A stretch of DNA of 64,000 bases from Candidatus Oxydemutatoraceae bacterium. GTDB lineage: Bacteria > Pseudomonadota > Gammaproteobacteria > Poriferisulfidales > Oxydemutatoraceae. Numbering within the stretch: position 1 is the first letter of the stretch; each line of letters starts with the position of its first letter. A program made the translations under genes and the position numbers. Under the pieces are notes generated by a model that was given only the letters and a program-made list of their open reading frames with translations, ran no database searches and was not told where the DNA came from. The DNA is taken from positions 812,769 through 876,768 of the forward strand of contig OZ244779.1 of assembly GCA_965219575.1 (NCBI GenBank), in the 5' to 3' direction. This document shows, piece by piece, positions 57,579 through 61,528 of this stretch.

Positions 57579-58184
57579 ATGACCTTGCCTGCGCCACCTT
57601 TATTGCCGAGCAGGATAACCATACACGGCGCGTGTTTGCTGCCCTTTTTATATCTGCTCTATGCGGGTTTCAACAACGATCTCGGTGCCAACCCCATAGA
57701 ATATATTACGAGATTCACCGGTGATTGGACCTTGCAAATGTTATTGATAGTGCTTGCGTTCAGACCTTGGGTGCATTTAACGAATATGCGTTGGCTGTTG
57801 CGTCATCGCCGTGCGGTAGGCTTGTATAGCTTTTTTTACGCATCGTGCCATTTCACGACTTATATATGGCTGGATCAATTTTTTGATTTGCAATCCATCG
57901 TTATCGATATTCTAGATCGTCCTTTTATTTTCGCCGGCTTTGCCGCCTTCGTGCTACTTGTTCCATTGGCGATAACCTCCAATAATCGGGCAGTCCGCTA
58001 TTTGCAGCATCGCTGGACTTTGTTACATCGCTTGGTTTATGTTATTGCTGCCGTCGGTTTGGTTCACTACTGGTGGTTGATACGCGCCGATTACTTAAAG
58101 GCGTGGATTTATTTGAGTATACTGACTTTATTGTTGGGTTATCGCTTTGCACTCTATCTGCGACAATCATACCAATATCGCTAA
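57579..58184 (+). CDS. msrQ: Protein-methionine-sulfoxide reductase heme subunit
   Basis: LGANPIE, RRAVGL, LAITS, W..LHRLVY, HYWW. Confidence 0.95.
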   Translation: MTLPAPPLLPSRITIHGACLLPFLYLLYAGFNNDLGANPIEYITRFTGDWTLQMLLIVLAFRPWVHLTNMRWLLRHRRAVGLYSFFYASCHFTTYIWLDQFFDLQSIVIDILDRPFIFAGFAAFVLLVPLAITSNNRAVRYLQHRWTLLHRLVYVIAAVGLVHYWWLIRADYLKAWIYLSILTLLLGYRFALYLRQSYQYR

Positions 58185-58270
58185 TGTCAGAGTCCCGACG
58201 GCTTTTATGCTATGCCTTGATATATTACTGGAACCAATATTAGGAATAAATAAGTATGTCCTGAATAACG

Positions 58271-58465
58271 TTGTATAATTTATTGAAACGTATACCCGAC
58301 TCAAACGATGGCGAGGTAGAAAAAGCCGTTGCCGAAGTCGCCGGCACGAGAGATGTAGCGACTAAAGTGGATATAGCAAATCTAGAGACCAGGCCGACAA
58401 ATCGAATGTATGCGGTTGCAGCAGTAATAATAGCGGCAGTTGCGCTGACAGCAAAATTTTTATAA
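58271..58465 (+). CDS. Small DUF1640-like coiled-coil/TM protein
   Basis: DVATKVDIANLE followed by a hydrophobic C terminus. Start uncertain (TTG). Confidence 0.5.
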   Translation: MYNLLKRIPDSNDGEVEKAVAEVAGTRDVATKVDIANLETRPTNRMYAVAAVIIAAVALTAKFL

Positions 58466-58488
58466 GGAAAGATACGATTAACTAAGTT

Positions 58489-58788
58489 ATGGAGAGCAGA
58501 ACAATGGAGCAAGATGACATCAAAACACAAGCAGACAAAATTAGAAATCTGGTAGAAGAAGGCAAATATAAAGGCTTAGAAAACTTTACCGAAGAAGAGC
58601 TGGAAAAGATATATGAGGCTATAGCCGAAGCAGGTTTATTGGACGCTATCGGCACACCAGGTGTTTGTGAATTACTTTGTGATATAGCTTACAAAGCCTG
58701 TAAAGCTAATGCCAAAACCGAGGGAGAAGTGGCATTATGCGTAGTAGAGCGTTGGGCGTGCAAACAAGTGTTATGCAAAAAATTATAG
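58489..58788 (+). CDS. Small protein with acidic N terminus and six-Cys C terminus
   Basis: GGAGAG RBS before the ATG at 58504. Cys spacing C-x3-C-x6-C-x12-C-x6-C-x4-C. Confidence 0.6.
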   Translation: MESRTMEQDDIKTQADKIRNLVEEGKYKGLENFTEEELEKIYEAIAEAGLLDAIGTPGVCELLCDIAYKACKANAKTEGEVALCVVERWACKQVLCKKL

Positions 58789-58796
58789 TCGCTAAC

Positions 58797-58876
58797 GAGA
58801 CTATCAACTATTTTGTGTAATTCGTATTCAATAGCTAATCGGTTTATCGCCGATATCCAATTCCGTATCGGCATCT
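58797..58876 (-). mobile_element. IS256-family remnant (last codons of the transposase plus terminal repeat)
   Basis: MPIRNWISAINRLAIEYE resembles the IS256 transposase C terminus. The end GAGACTATCAACTATTTTGTGTAA (58797-58820) resembles IS256 IRs. Confidence 0.7.
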
Positions 58877-58945
58877 CACAGTTAGCTTAAAGCGTTTTAG
58901 CTTTTTTCACCACTCATTCCATAAAACCGTTGATATAACCGGCAT

Positions 58946-60204
58946 GGAAATTATATAGTTAACTTGACAAAGAAATGTTAAATTATATCAATGCAAACCC
59001 ATAGAACAATTAGATATCATTTATATCCGGCGACACAGAAAAAACACCGACAATTACATGGCACGGCAGGCGCATGCCGCTATGTCCGGAATCACTTTGT
59101 AGCTAAGTTGAAGGACGAATACGAGTATTACGGCGAGAGCCGGTTTAGCTATTTCACTCTGGGTAAGCAATTTACGACCTTGCGAAAGTATTGCGACCGG
59201 TGGTTGCAAGGTTATTCCGCTTATATAGTCAAATCATCATTACAACCGATAGAGATAGCATACAAAGGATTTTTCAAGGGCGACAACGGATTGCCGAAGT
59301 TTCACGGCAAATATACGCATAGTCCGTCATTCCCGATCAATTATCAATCGGTAAAGATATCGGGTTGTCATTTGTATATACAGAGGGTCGGCTGGATGAA
59401 GTTTGCCGGTGGCGATAGGTGTCAAGGTGAGAAGTTTGTATGCGGTCAAGTCAAGTATGAATGTGGTAAATGGTATGCGTATATCACCTATGAAGTGGAA
59501 GTGCCTGACAAGCCACATCCAGTGGCAGCGGTAGGACTAGATAGGAATTGTGGTCAGGTCGCATTGTCGGACGGAACGATGTATCACCTACCCGACTTAA
59601 AGCGTAAGGAGGCAAGGCGTAGGCGGTATCAGCGAATGGTTGCTAGACGGGTGAAGGGGAGCAACAGGCGCAAACTAGCAAAGCATAGGCTACGGAAAGC
59701 GTATCAAGCGGAGCGGTTTGCGAGGGCGAATTGGTGTCATCAAACCAGCCGGTTAATAGCCGACCAGTACGACATTGTGTATATGGAAGGATTGAGTACG
59801 GCAGGCATGACGAAGTCGGCGAAGGGGACAATAGAAGCACCGGGCAAGAATGCGAGAGCAAAGTCGGGTTTGAATAGGGAGATACTAAAAAGTGGTTGGT
59901 ATAAACCGGAACAATGCTTAAGCTACAAAGCATATATAGAAAAGGTCAATCCGGCCTATACAAGTCAAATATGCAACAAGCGCGGAAGCGTAGCTAAAGC
60001 GAACCGCAAAACACAAGCGATATTTAAGTGCCGGCACTGCAGACACGAGGACAATGCAGATGTCAATGCTGCATTAAACATTCTGGCGGCTGGGAGTACC
60101 GCTACCGGGCGTGGAGATTGCAGCGTTGGCTGGTCTGTGAAGCGTCAAAAAGAGAGGATGGCAAGGCAGGCTAATAAGCCTGTCAAGTTATCTATATAAT
60201 TCCC
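58946..60204 (+). mobile_element. Non-autonomous TIR transposon (IS1595-like ends) carrying only tnpB
   Basis: Left end GGAAATTATATAGTTAACTTGACA (58946-58969) and right end TGTCAAGTTATCTATATAATTCCC (60181-60204) match at 22/24 positions as inverted repeats. Flanks are ACCGGCAT (58938-58945) and AACGGCAT (60205-60212). Confidence 0.85.
58991..60199 (+). CDS. tnpB: RNA-guided endonuclease TnpB
   Basis: N-terminal YHLYP...AGACRYV.N, GLPKF, RuvC-I VGLDRN, RuvC-II YMEGL, AKSGLNREIL, TSQIC, CRHC, RuvC-III NADVNAALNIL. Confidence 0.93.
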   Translation: MQTHRTIRYHLYPATQKKHRQLHGTAGACRYVRNHFVAKLKDEYEYYGESRFSYFTLGKQFTTLRKYCDRWLQGYSAYIVKSSLQPIEIAYKGFFKGDNGLPKFHGKYTHSPSFPINYQSVKISGCHLYIQRVGWMKFAGGDRCQGEKFVCGQVKYECGKWYAYITYEVEVPDKPHPVAAVGLDRNCGQVALSDGTMYHLPDLKRKEARRRRYQRMVARRVKGSNRRKLAKHRLRKAYQAERFARANWCHQTSRLIADQYDIVYMEGLSTAGMTKSAKGTIEAPGKNARAKSGLNREILKSGWYKPEQCLSYKAYIEKVNPAYTSQICNKRGSVAKANRKTQAIFKCRHCRHEDNADVNAALNILAAGSTATGRGDCSVGWSVKRQKERMARQANKPVKLSI

Positions 60205-60224
60205 AACGGCATTTTCATGACGCT
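60086..60224 (+). ncRNA. Putative omegaRNA (scaffold over the tnpB 3' end and right TIR, guide from the flank)
   Basis: GGGCGTGGAG...TCTGTGAAGCGTC stem and 3' hairpin GATGGC-AA-GGCAGGCT-AATA-AGCCTGTC-AA-GTTATC (60157-60192). Position as expected for TnpB omegaRNAs. Boundaries are inferred. Confidence 0.55.
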
Positions 60225-60379
60225 ACTCTATTTTAGGTTCACATCCGTAGAGAGCGCATACATACACAGCATCTTATTTAGACTGTCGTTTATAATGAAC
60301 TTTTGCAATTCGAATGGATGAAGGAAAAATGAGGCGGTATATTTCAAAGAAAGCGATGCAATCAAATGGTAAACGGGCA

Positions 60380-61198
60380 GTGAACGACATCGCTACCGTG
60401 TTGTTTTTATTATCGCTATTGGCACTAACACCTGTCGGTGCGTATGAGGCGGAAGAGACTTTTCGCGATTGTGCAACCTGTCCGGAGATGGTCGTGTTGC
60501 CGGCAGGAGAGTTCACGATGGGTTTTCCCGTAGGAGAGAGAGGAATAGGCGATAAAGAAGCACCACAACGTCAAGTTACTATTCCCGGACCTTTTGCGGT
60601 GGGCAAATATGAGGTGACCGTAGGGCAATATGAAGAGTTTGTTCGGGAGACAAACCACAACACCGAAAATTGTAATTTTCTGAGAGGCAAATCTTGGGAT
60701 GATCCGGGTTTTAATCAAACCGGTGATCATCCGATAGTATGTGTTTCTTGGTATGATGCTTCAGAATACGCTTCTTGGTTATCAACGAAGACCGGGCATA
60801 AATACAGGTTATTAACCGAGGCGGAGTGGGAATATGCGGCTCGTGCCGGAACAACGACGGCGTATCATTTCGGTAGAATGATTTCTCCTAATCAGGCCCG
60901 GTATGACAGCGACGGATCGCTGGCAGTAGGTAGTTTTCCTGCAAATGCATTCGGGTTACACGATATGCACGGCAACGCATCGGAATGGGTGGAGGATTGC
61001 TGGCACATCAAGCACAAAGATGCACCAACCGACGGTAGTGCGTGGCTTAACAGATGTGAAGGAAAAAGAATGGTACGCGGCGGTGGATGGGACACTATAA
61101 ACCCGGACCTAGTGAGATCCGCATATCGCTATAGGGAAAGTGAGAATTATCGCAGATTCAGCCTTGGGTTTCGAGTTGCCCGCGACCTTACTCCATAA
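60380..61198 (+). CDS. Secreted FGE-sulfatase (SUMF1, C-type lectin fold) domain protein
   Basis: FRDCATCPEMV.LPAGEFTMG, YEVT, RLLTEAEWEYAARAG, NAFGLHDMHGN..EW, RGG.W, GFRVAR. A signal peptide follows the GTG at 60380 (ORF track starts at 60314). Confidence 0.9.
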   Translation: MNDIATVLFLLSLLALTPVGAYEAEETFRDCATCPEMVVLPAGEFTMGFPVGERGIGDKEAPQRQVTIPGPFAVGKYEVTVGQYEEFVRETNHNTENCNFLRGKSWDDPGFNQTGDHPIVCVSWYDASEYASWLSTKTGHKYRLLTEAEWEYAARAGTTTAYHFGRMISPNQARYDSDGSLAVGSFPANAFGLHDMHGNASEWVEDCWHIKHKDAPTDGSAWLNRCEGKRMVRGGGWDTINPDLVRSAYRYRESENYRRFSLGFRVARDLTP

Positions 61199-61218
61199 AC
61201 CTTTAATGCTTTGTGCTT

Positions 61219-61404
61219 GCACGATTTATATATTCATCCATTTGATTCATGGAAACCATTATTTGTTGACGCATGACGGTTAGGGTTATGCAGACACGGC
61301 GCGCAGTTCGGGCAGAACAGGGCCGCCGATTGAGCCAGTAGGCCAATCGGCAATTTAATTTTAGTCCGCCCCTACGGTGCATGAAATACTTTTTCAACAG
61401 CCCC
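61219..61404. repeat. Partial MITE/REP copy
   Basis: GCACGATTTATATATTCATCC...ATGGAAACC spacer, expanded REP and TACTTTTTCAACAGCCCC end. Confidence 0.85.
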
Positions 61405-61528
61405 GATATTTTTCAAAAGCCCTACTTGAATTTTGGGTTTATGCACGGTTATCGCCTATAATAAGAACCTTATCCATTAAAGCAGGTGTGCTTTTATCAA
61501 TTATTCATAAACAGTATAGGAATGACCG

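Follow-up and report, generated by a model that had tools for sequence, protein, structure and literature searches.

A tnpB gene between terminal inverted repeats

The locus lies near the right end of the window, by which we mean the whole stretch of 64,000 nucleotides that was analysed. It comprises a unit of 1259 bp (58946–60204) with 24-bp inverted ends and a single gene, tnpB, as defined from the sequence and a repeat search (Table 1). The repeat search returned arms of 25 nt at 58945–58969 and 60181–60205 that are 92% complementary, which correspond to the 24-nt terminal inverted repeats (TIRs) plus one chance base. The TIRs begin with GG, and their outer 12 bases, GGGAATTATATA, of which the window copy carries one change, are common to IS1595 family members of the same genome. 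The sole long open reading frame of the unit is tnpB itself and no transposase frame was found within the 1259 bp. The right TIR contains the tnpB stop codon (TAA, 60197–60199) at a distance of 5 nt from the end of the element, and this spacing is found in 19 of 23 family members. A scan for promoters and terminators gave three promoter-like sites, where 3.3 were expected, and did not detect any terminator.

The initial annotation had described a 1259-bp unit with 24-bp inverted repeats differing at two positions, an 8-bp flanking direct repeat with one mismatch (target site duplication, TSD; the two copies are alike at 7 of 8 positions), a stop codon within the right TIR and the lack of a transposase gene. 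Each of these features was recovered, the last from the list of open reading frames, which shows tnpB alone.

Table 1 Positions of the features of the tnpB element within the window.
Feature	Position	Strand	Remarks
TA dinucleotide	58936–58937	+	Abuts the 5' side of the left TSD; candidate TAM or target preference
Left TSD copy, 8 bp, ACCGGCAT	58938–58945		7/8 match to 60205–60212
Left TIR, GGAAATTATATAGTTAACTTGACA	58946–58969	+	From repeat search; 2 mismatches to right TIR
tnpB, 402 aa, intact ORF including stop	58991–60199	+	Profile matches; RuvC residues present; Cys331 to Arg
Conserved structured RNA region (candidate omega-RNA scaffold)	60033–60204	+	Within tnpB 3' end and right TIR
Right TIR, GGGAATTATATAGATAACTTGACA read inward	60181–60204	-	Encodes final 6 tnpB codons and stop
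Right TSD copy, 8 bp, AACGGCAT	60205–60212		7/8 match to 58938–58945

Copies, duplications and empty sites

We refer to the window genome as G000, to its congeners as G001, G003 and G004, and to loci in relatives by L numbers. The window genome holds five full copies of the element (80–100% identity) that end exactly at the TIRs, together with four miniature derivatives, two solo ends and one copy broken by another IS. The alignment of each full copy with the unit begins at base 1 (at base 4 for one of the five) and extends to base 1259; thus, homology ends at the tips of the TIRs. Perfect 8-bp TSDs, each of a different sequence, flank three of the five full copies, and the window copy has its 7/8 match.

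We examined TSDs at 56 related tnpB elements, and both ends were found in 52. The flanks agree at 8/8 positions in 21 of these and at 7/8 in a further 11, giving 32/52 in total, while the remaining 20 have no recognisable TSD. The chance of a flank match of at least 7/8 is 0.0004 per element, so the observed frequency is not due to chance. Elements with a poor TSD or none include L085, L074, L058 and T5, among others.

Empty sites were identified for four congener elements (L057, L075, L087 and L076), where G000 holds a single copy of the 8-bp sequence. For the window copy itself, we detected no empty allele in G001, G003 or G004, from which the stretch 58185–60284 is entirely missing. Contigs from four DNA runs (X2, X6, X8 and X9) contained the occupied left junction in three runs and no joint across the element, and so gave no empty allele either.

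Inverted ends and differing 8-bp duplications also accompany both close and distant tnpB homologues (37–100% amino acid identity), in keeping with the packaging proposed in the initial annotation. When the presence of TIRs was mapped onto a TnpB tree, the TIR-bounded proteins formed one clade with the TIR-less proteins outside. A single branch (SH-aLRT 100, length 1.16) leads to 48 TIR-bounded TnpBs and two for which ends were not found, and eight TIR-less TnpBs fall apart from it.

IS1595-family partner elements

DDE elements of the IS1595 family with exactly the same TIRs, 1276 bp in length, are present in two congeners, as L032/L194 in G001 and L051/L195 in G004. The L194/L195-type transposases match NF033547 at 190 bits (cut-off 75), as well as PF12762 and PF12760. 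Overall, the partner transposases score 190–194 bits against NF033547 and combine an N-terminal zinc ribbon with a DDE_Tnp_IS1595 domain. The assignment of the ends to IS1595, made initially from end similarity, is therefore borne out by the same TIR bracketing IS1595-family DDE genes in G001 and G004. We searched both autonomous exact-TIR elements for a TSD and found none. The sister lineage of tnpB elements, V3, has a partner with V3-type TIRs (L189), which has a perfect TSD and resides in the same genome as V3 tnpB elements. The end consensus of the elements may fit the ISNwi1 group of ISfinder (ggnnatTAT).

Within the window genome there are 11 matches to DDE_Tnp_IS1595. Its type A IS1595 element is present as three copies and two miniature derivatives, all with 8-bp TSDs, and its TIR shares the outer 12/12 bases, and about 18/25 bases overall, with that of the tnpB element. 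The same outer 12 bases are found at IS1595 elements of G001, G003 and G004. All 23 TIR-like sites of the window genome were accounted for and none belongs to an exact-TIR transposase element, so present mobility in this genome is putative. Among the loci queried, no IS1595 transposase match lies inside a TIR-bounded tnpB element, and the only such match near a tnpB element, at L039, lies outside the TIR pair.

Taken together, the ends, the TSD and the family partners support the classification of the window element, on sequence grounds, as a non-autonomous IS1595-family derivative. The further suggestion in the initial annotation, that the element is mobilised in trans by a DDE transposase encoded elsewhere in the genome, is supported by the shared ends, TSDs, insertion polymorphism and partners in congeners, with the caveat that an exact-TIR transposase is absent from the window genome itself. 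The data contradict both outcomes that the initial annotation had named as refuting it, namely close homologues devoid of such ends or duplications, and ends shared by no transposase.

The TnpB protein

The protein matches the TnpB profiles HTH_OrfB_IS605, OrfB_IS605 and Cas12f1-like_TNB (PF12323, PF01385 and PF07282), and scores 189.5 bits against the NCBIfam model guided_TnpB (NF040570, cut-off 100). The RuvC residues D184, E266 and D357 do not vary among the 19 family members aligned, one of which is the window copy. In the C4 zinc finger between RuvC-II and RuvC-III, the window copy carries a C331R substitution. This change is unique to it, all four cysteines being kept in the other 18/18 aligned sequences, and the complete zinc finger is thus a feature of the family but not of the window copy.

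Comparison of the window tnpB with 13 other copies gave dN/dS values of 0.07–0.19, and the reading frame is intact in 14/14 copies analysed. TnpB is under purifying selection. The copies within the genome are old, with dS values of 0.3–0.9 between them. The window copy may be weakened, judging from C331R and from the lack of an exact-TIR transposase in its genome. In a plasmid collection, 2890 records match the window TnpB, all below 60% identity (at most 36% among the matches listed), with no close annotated relative.

A candidate omega-RNA at the 3' end

The last ~170 nt of the element have a conserved RNA fold with compensatory changes. In the alignment of this region 97.8% of cells are paired, compared to 33–44% with partners slid, and changes on both sides of a pair occur in 49 cells, compared to 20.6 ± 4.0 in shuffles (0/500). 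A covariance model built on the region matches miniature elements and also the elements of TnpBs of only 37–40% identity, and the RNA module is retained in three of the four miniature elements of the window genome. An Rfam search with the region returned no match at E values up to 1. A pseudoknot of GGGA(A/G)U with AUUCCC can be paired in nearly all of 16 sequences; since both strands are almost invariant, covariation gives no test of this pairing.

The dinucleotide preceding the duplication

The dinucleotide TA lies just 5' of the left TSD in six of the seven V1/V2 tnpB elements that have a TSD of at least 7/8, an enrichment over the genome TA frequency of 0.064 (binomial p = 4e-7), and occupies the same place in three more miniature or degraded derivatives. 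The V3 lineage has AG or GG instead, in 3/3 elements with a perfect TSD and in one with 6/8. We compared the tnpB elements with seven IS1595 elements that lack tnpB and rejected TA as a TnpB-specific signal, since the difference was not significant (6/7 versus 2/7, Fisher p = 0.10; p = 0.035 once the three miniature or degraded derivatives are included). A purine directly precedes the TSD in 31/32 tnpB elements and in 6/7 of the tnpB-less IS1595 elements. The purine preference may stem from the transposase rather than represent a target-adjacent motif (TAM). As the TA difference is not significant and the purine at position -1 is common to both groups, we do not claim a TAM.

Interpretation and alternatives

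We consider it very likely that the window element is a non-autonomous DDE transposon of the IS1595 group, in which tnpB and an embedded RNA scaffold take the place of the transposase gene, and which is moved in trans. An autonomous element with the same ends would supply an IS1595-family transposase, the enzyme would bind the TIRs of the tnpB cassette, and a staggered cut at insertion would give rise to the 8-bp duplication. The duplications, empty sites and partner elements are observed directly; the action in trans is what we infer.

It is highly improbable that this is an ordinary tnpB-only element of the IS200/IS605 type (IS1341 group), moved by a Y1 TnpA, whose apparent ends and repeat arose by chance or represent hairpins and a target motif. 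TnpB does match IS200/IS605-type profiles, and the left-flank target motif of IS605 elements can resemble the right end. However, the 8-bp flanking repeats differ in sequence at each insertion and are present as a single copy at empty sites, and DDE transposase genes lie between the same ends; these observations refute the IS200/IS605 reading. Moreover, the TIR-bounded TnpBs form a clade of their own, and the only Y1_Tnp matches in the window genome are two weak ones (18 bits, 204-aa frames), neither of which is beside a copy. Domestication by the host, in which TnpB would serve as a TldR-like RNA-guided repressor or other cellular factor and the TIRs would be relics, has precedent in other lineages, and the zinc-finger change of the window copy would suit it. 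We regard it as very unlikely here, given the intact RuvC residues, the multiple copies of the gene at insertions polymorphic between congeners, and ends whose conservation extends to their final base.

A further alternative is that IS1595 transposases move the cassette while TnpB and its RNA are passengers without a role, the window copy being a decaying fossil. The substitution of an otherwise invariant zinc-finger cysteine, the absence of an exact-TIR transposase from the window genome and the age of the copies within it are in line with this, as is the argument that DDE cut-and-paste transposition already leaves a double-strand break, so that it is not evident what would be gained from a homing nuclease (PMC13565253, section 6.2). 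Against this, the frames are intact and under constraint, the catalytic D/E/D residues are invariant, and the RNA structure is maintained through compensatory changes and retained in miniature elements that have no gene. The association of TIRs with TnpB also extends over a deep clade in which identity falls to 37%, and neutral cargo would not be expected to last so long. We therefore judge the passenger explanation unlikely, although less so than the other two.

We return to the trans-mobilised IS1595 derivative, in which the most likely role of TnpB and its RNA, by analogy with IS605 and Fanzor systems, is in the spread of the element. Transcription of the RNA would continue across the right TIR into flanking DNA, and the guide would start with the duplicated 8-bp target. 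The nuclease would recognise the uninterrupted empty site, usually preceded by TA in this lineage. We propose that the occupied site is protected because there the target sequence comes after the TIR tip ...TTCCC. Once an empty or excised site is cut, recombinational repair would restore the element or cause it to spread.

More tentatively, these features may together represent an OMEGA module refitted to a DDE transposon with variable 8-bp duplications, although we think it somewhat doubtful that all parts of this scheme are correct jointly. The guide RNA would extend across the right TIR, with the duplicated 8 bp as the start of the guide, and the TAM would be the dinucleotide outside the duplication, TA here and AG/GG in the sister lineage, which has a different inner TIR. 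A pseudoknot would form between the conserved GGGA(A/G)U loop and, as its 3' strand, the outermost bases of the TIR (AUUCCC), which would thereby have a second function. Miniature elements with only TIRs and the RNA scaffold could provide extra guides in trans, and one tnpB module would have come, through repackaging, to lie between the ends of different IS1595 members. On this scheme TnpB would be the prokaryotic counterpart of Fanzor, serving a DDE transposon of the cut-and-paste type as a nuclease for homing or against loss.

Cas12 descends from TnpB, which is under development as a miniature genome editor. What is known of TnpB biology, in which homing offsets scarless excision, was established on IS605 and IS607 elements. 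Bacterial TnpBs on DDE transposons with variable duplications receive brief mentions in the literature consulted here, with no experiments reported there. The family of the window element offers a convenient natural system to ask how TAM and guide are set when the flank varies, and what a homing nuclease offers a cut-and-paste element, since intact copies are numerous and occur, within a few close genomes, alongside matching autonomous partners, empty sites and miniatures with the RNA alone. For annotation, tnpB-only genes should not be placed under IS200/IS605 by default.

Comparison with known systems

The novelty of a tnpB packaged between TIRs and TSDs, as presented in the initial annotation, was overstated. 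DDE-associated TnpBs with inverted terminal repeats were described as branches DDE-1 to DDE-6 by Altae-Tran et al. (2023, PNAS; PMC10691335), who also described solo TnpBs with ends nearly identical to those of transposase-bearing elements and read these as mobilised in trans. The novelty is thus modest, the design having been outlined in that study. As in the elements here, those branches have a prokaryotic TnpB between TIRs with the 3' end of tnpB near the transposon end. According to the supplement, the transposon end in branch DDE-5 has a TA motif 8 bp upstream of it, a position that agrees with six of the seven V1/V2 elements, and our family may correspond to this branch. The name IS1595 has 0 occurrences in the main text of PMC10691335 and is found only in the profile list of its supporting information, and a 2026 review names ISL2, IS630 and IS1031 as DDE partners of TnpB.

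IS1595 insertion sequences and their transposase-less derivatives, MITEs and passenger-carrying 'transporter' IS, likewise have TIRs starting with GG, 8-bp TSDs, which are the norm of the family, and a zinc-ribbon DDE partner (PMC8101967). Miniatures in the same genome are a further likeness to IS1595 derivatives; the present elements differ in their cargo, an RNA-guided nuclease, of which both the reading frame and the RNA reach into the TIR.

The tnpB-only elements of IS200/IS605 (IS1341 group) likewise carry tnpB as the sole gene, are non-autonomous and have a structured RNA that overlaps the 3' end of the gene and extends to the element end. Whereas IS200/IS605 elements have no TIRs or TSDs, a fixed motif of 4–5 nt and a Y1 (HUH) TnpA (PMC13565253), the window element has 24-bp TIRs, variable 8-bp TSDs and a DDE partner, and so does not show the transposition features of IS200/IS605. 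In architecture, the elements are likened to Fanzor, the TnpB homologue of eukaryotes and viruses, which likewise comprises a TnpB-type nuclease in a DDE transposon with TIRs and TSDs and a guide RNA at the 3' end of the element (PMC13565253, section 6.2). In contrast to Fanzor, the elements here are bacterial, encode compact TnpBs of 400 aa and have an IS1595 partner instead of Mariner, hAT and similar transposons.

Structure and setting of the window element

The tnpB element of the window is a 1259-bp unit bounded by 24-bp terminal inverted repeats (TIRs) with 2 mismatches, which the initial annotation had described and which a repeat search and the sequence itself both bear out, the arms found by the search being these TIRs plus one chance base. 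The flanking 8-bp direct repeat, or target-site duplication (TSD), matches at 7/8 positions, tnpB ends within the right TIR, its stop codon 5 nt short of the tip, and the gene fills the unit to the exclusion of any transposase gene, all in agreement with that annotation. The encoded protein contains HTH_OrfB_IS605, OrfB_IS605 and Cas12f1-like TNB domains and scores 189.5 bits against the NCBIfam guided_TnpB model (cut-off 100).

The whole 2.1-kb stretch around the element is absent from the orthologous place in three congeners (G001, G003 and G004), and the element is thus part of a strain-specific island. An empty site of the window copy was not found in these three genomes, which lack the entire stretch, nor in four public DNA runs, which show the occupied junction only. 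Upstream of the element lies a short sequence present in many copies in G001–G004 (85–94% identity), probably a small repeat element, which coincides with a depth spike in the public DNA runs. The adjoining 294-aa ORF belongs to a gene family that has expanded strongly within the genus, with over 20 paralogous DNA matches in G001 (70–84% identity) and several in G004; pieces 3' of it occur as dozens of repeats in G001, G003 and G004 (78–100% identity). A sigma-70-like site overlaps the left TIR, in a region where the number of such sites is no higher than expected by chance.

Features of the window element, its surroundings and related loci (G000, the genome holding the window; C1, its contig)
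Feature	Location	Description
tnpB element	window 58946–60204	1259-bp unit
Inverted arms	window 58945–58969 / 60181–60205	92% complementary
Flanking repeats	from sequence at window 58938–60212	ACCGGCAT and AACGGCAT
tnpB	window 58991–60199	402 aa; sole long ORF of the unit
Strain-specific stretch	window 58185–60284	Between a 201-aa ORF ending at 58184 and an ORF starting at 60314; holds small ORFs, a short repeat and the tnpB element
Probable small repeat element	window about 58821–58882	~55–80 bp
Sigma-70-like site	window 58930–58959	10/12 matches; -35 TTGATA in flank, -10 TATAGT within left TIR, directed into tnpB
294-aa ORF	window 60314–61198	Adjoins the element
Repeated pieces	window about 61205–61405	Several, 40–100 bp, 3' of the 294-aa ORF
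L006	G000:C1:663666–665504	Degraded tnpB cassette, both TIRs present, split by an inserted element with two ORFs (88 aa + 274 aa)
T5	G000:C1:1865961–1867219	Full copy without TSD
L014	G000:C1:396851–397074	Two TIRs and scaffold-model match, without tnpB
L009	G000:C1:1149330–1149527	As L014
L015	G000:C1:2197522–2197747	As L014
Smaller IS1595-family element	G000, e.g. 257678–258091	226-aa transposase, TIR GGTACTTGACTAGTTTAGGG; 8 copies (L023–L027 among them)
L050 element	L050:2501–3940	1440 bp, Nitrospirales metagenome record; V1-type TIR on one side, diverged TIR on the other
23 TIR-like sites of G000		Ten ends of full copies; degraded copy interrupted by an IS3-like element; four miniature elements; two solo ends; one weak match

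Copies, target-site duplications and empty sites

The window sits in one 2.37-Mb contig of G000, which carries five full-length copies of the unit at 80–100% identity. Their alignments all reach base 1259 and start at base 1, or base 4 in one copy, so similarity stops at the TIR tips. Besides the window copy and T5, the three other copies have perfect 8-bp flanking repeats that are unrelated in sequence (AATGAGTG, ATTTTTCT and AAATCATA). All 23 TIR-like sites found in G000 with up to 5 mismatches are accounted for, and four of the loci are miniature elements of 140–226 bp, two of which have 7/8 TSDs. The two-ORF element that interrupts L006 looks, by eye, like an IS3-family insertion sequence. 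T5 lies no more than about 50–100 bp from the position to which the left flank of L086 (V3 type, G001) maps; that two congeners carry different cassettes so close to one site suggests a hot spot or a replacement.

TIRs starting GGGAATTAT(A/G)TA bound all the related tnpB genes, which come from the four congeners, from other genera in the order and from metagenome contigs. The inner half of the TIR is variable, being G-N-TAACTTGACA in type V1 (that of the window copy), CTTCTTTC... in V2, CAATTCTGCAC in V3, and different again in others. Both ends were found in 52 of 56 tnpB elements examined, with perfect 8-bp TSDs in 21, 7/8 matches in 11 and 6/8 or fewer in 20. The expectation that the same ends would surround further tnpB copies with differing TSDs holds within G000; among elements with ends of this kind, 32/52 have TSDs at 7/8 or better, where the chance of such a match is 0.0004 per element. 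When element flanks from G001, G003 and G004 were compared with G000, four clean empty sites emerged (L057, L075, L087 and L076): in G000 the two flanks adjoin, and their overlap is precisely the 8-bp segment that is duplicated where the element is present.

Shared ends with IS1595 transposases

We found 11 DDE_Tnp_IS1595 matches in G000, of which three encode a 319-aa transposase (type A) and eight a 226-aa one. The type A element measures 1348 bp, has 25-bp TIRs (GGGAATTATATACTTAAATACATAA) and is flanked by 8-bp TSDs in 3/3 copies; its two 250-bp miniature derivatives likewise have 8-bp TSDs. Type A and the tnpB element agree in all of the outer 12 TIR bases and differ in the inner part. The TIR of the 226-aa type and the inner TIR of the tnpB cassette have the heptamer ACTTGAC in common, which may be chance.

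A scan for the tnpB-type TIR in one genome per species yielded 27 loci, all in metagenome-assembled genomes, whose labels cover many different phyla. The same TIR pair encloses tnpB in L030, L036, L039 and L043, and in L044 and L048, whose TnpBs are only 37% identical; it encloses an IS1595 transposase in 1276-bp elements, one each in G001 (L032/L194) and G004 (L051/L195), with the exact TIR, as well as a 298-bp miniature (L054) and the two-ORF cargo of L050. A further autonomous IS1595 element of G001 (L189, 1282 bp, perfect TSD) matches the V3 tnpB TIR at 22/24 positions. The IS1595 assignment, first made from end similarity, is upheld by these partners, which score 190–194 bits against NF033547 (cut-off 75; 190 bits for the 1276-bp elements) and contain PF12762 and the PF12760 zinc ribbon.

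The initial annotation proposed a non-autonomous element moved in trans by a DDE transposase elsewhere in the genome. Shared ends, TSDs and autonomous partners in the congeners support such action in trans. In G000 itself, none of the 23 TIR-like sites (up to 5 mismatches) brackets a transposase gene.

The two ORFs of the L050 element (104 and 228 aa) lack Pfam matches, and it has neither transposase nor tnpB; these transposon ends may thus have taken up a further kind of cargo. The exact 24-nt TIR is not confined to the genus of the window: among L030–L056 it also turns up under the labels Nitrospirales, Dehalococcoidia, Terriglobia, Latescibacterota, Bryobacterales, Burkholderiales, Rhodobacterales, Pseudomonadales and Arenicellales, a spread across labelled taxa that implies recent horizontal transfer of this IS1595 subgroup. 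Within this set, tnpB cargo with the exact TIR is found in proteobacterial records only.

Phylogeny of the TIR-bounded TnpBs

TIR presence was mapped onto a maximum-likelihood tree of 58 TnpBs, obtained by a quick search and midpoint-rooted, with SH-aLRT as its sole measure of support; L122 and L127, both short fragments, were omitted. One branch (support 100, length 1.16) groups 48 TIR-bounded TnpBs with L119 and L121, whose ends were not found, and eight TIR-less metagenomic TnpBs fall outside it. A single origin of the TnpB-TIR association is therefore possible on this tree. L058 has a V1 TIR yet nests among V3 elements (support 99) within the subclade of the window copy, so at least one exchange of the inner TIR took place around a tnpB module that remained the same.

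Selection on TnpB and a candidate RNA scaffold

All 14 genus copies analysed are intact, with pairwise dN/dS of 0.07–0.19 at dS of 0.3–2.7, and all 19 aligned members share the RuvC residues D184, E266 and D357. In the window copy, and in no other, Arg replaces zinc-finger Cys331, which may impair this copy. In 19/23 members the right TIR contains the stop codon, 5 nt short of the tip.

The last ~170 nt contain a conserved structure in which 97.8% of cells are paired, versus 33–44% with the partners slid, and 49 cells have changes on both sides, versus 20.6 ± 4.0 in shuffles (0 of 500). This region has no Rfam match and fits a candidate omega-RNA scaffold. Its covariance model gives full-length matches in 3/4 miniature elements of G000 (109, 69 and 56 bits) and matches beside the distant TnpBs L044, L048, L118 and L120 (62–107 bits). 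The three matching miniatures (L014, L009 and L015), two of which lack a TSD, are RNA-only derivatives and could supply guides in trans. Pairing is possible between a GGGA(A/G)U loop and the AUUCCC at the tip of the element, a candidate pseudoknot for which covariation is uninformative because both strands are nearly invariant.

Target-flank motif

Read in the tnpB orientation, TA lies just before the left TSD in 6/7 V1/V2 elements with TSDs of at least 7/8, versus 1/7 after the right TSD (for the left side, binomial p 4e-7, given that TA has a frequency of 0.064 in the genome). Three derivatives, miniature or degraded, also have TA before the left TSD. V3 elements have AG or GG then C in 3/3 with perfect TSDs, plus one with 6/8. 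Across all lineages a purine precedes the left TSD in 31/32 and follows the right TSD in 17/32, a non-palindromic preference. Among seven IS1595 elements that have TSDs but no tnpB, read in the direction of the transposase gene, a purine is present in 6/7 and TA in 2/7; for TA, Fisher's test against the tnpB elements gives p = 0.10, or 0.035 with derivatives added. The flank motif is real. It may be a target-adjacent motif (TAM) of TnpB, a transposase preference, or both evolving together.

Comparison with known TnpB and IS1595 systems

The data support the window element as an IS1595-family cassette that lacks a transposase and carries a TnpB and RNA module under selection. DDE-associated TnpB as a kind is already in print: a 2026 review (PMC13565253) credits Altae-Tran et al. 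2023 with TnpBs with DDE transposases 'surrounded by TIRs', and that paper (PMC10691335) describes six such branches, all with inverted terminal repeats and with the tnpB 3' end at most 250 bp from the transposon end. It names IS1595 within a list of profiles only, and its figures and additional files may well include this family; none of the papers listed by a full-text search concerns a TnpB-IS1595 association, judged by title and abstract start. Worth recording here are the assignment to IS1595 at family level, along with its matched autonomous partners and the empty sites, the extension of the tnpB reading frame and RNA into the TIR, the RNA-only miniature derivatives, the lineage-specific flank motifs and the evidence of inner-TIR change by module.

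As the initial annotation held, IS200/IS605 and IS607 elements are stated by the review (PMC13565253) to have neither TIRs nor TSDs, whereas both are present here. IS1595-family elements normally have 8-bp TSDs and one transposase gene encoding a zinc finger and a DDE_Tnp_IS1595 domain (PMC8101967); the window element shares the 8-bp TSD but lacks the transposase gene. With the DDE-associated branches (PMC10691335), the window tnpB has in common inverted terminal repeats and a 3' end near that of the element.
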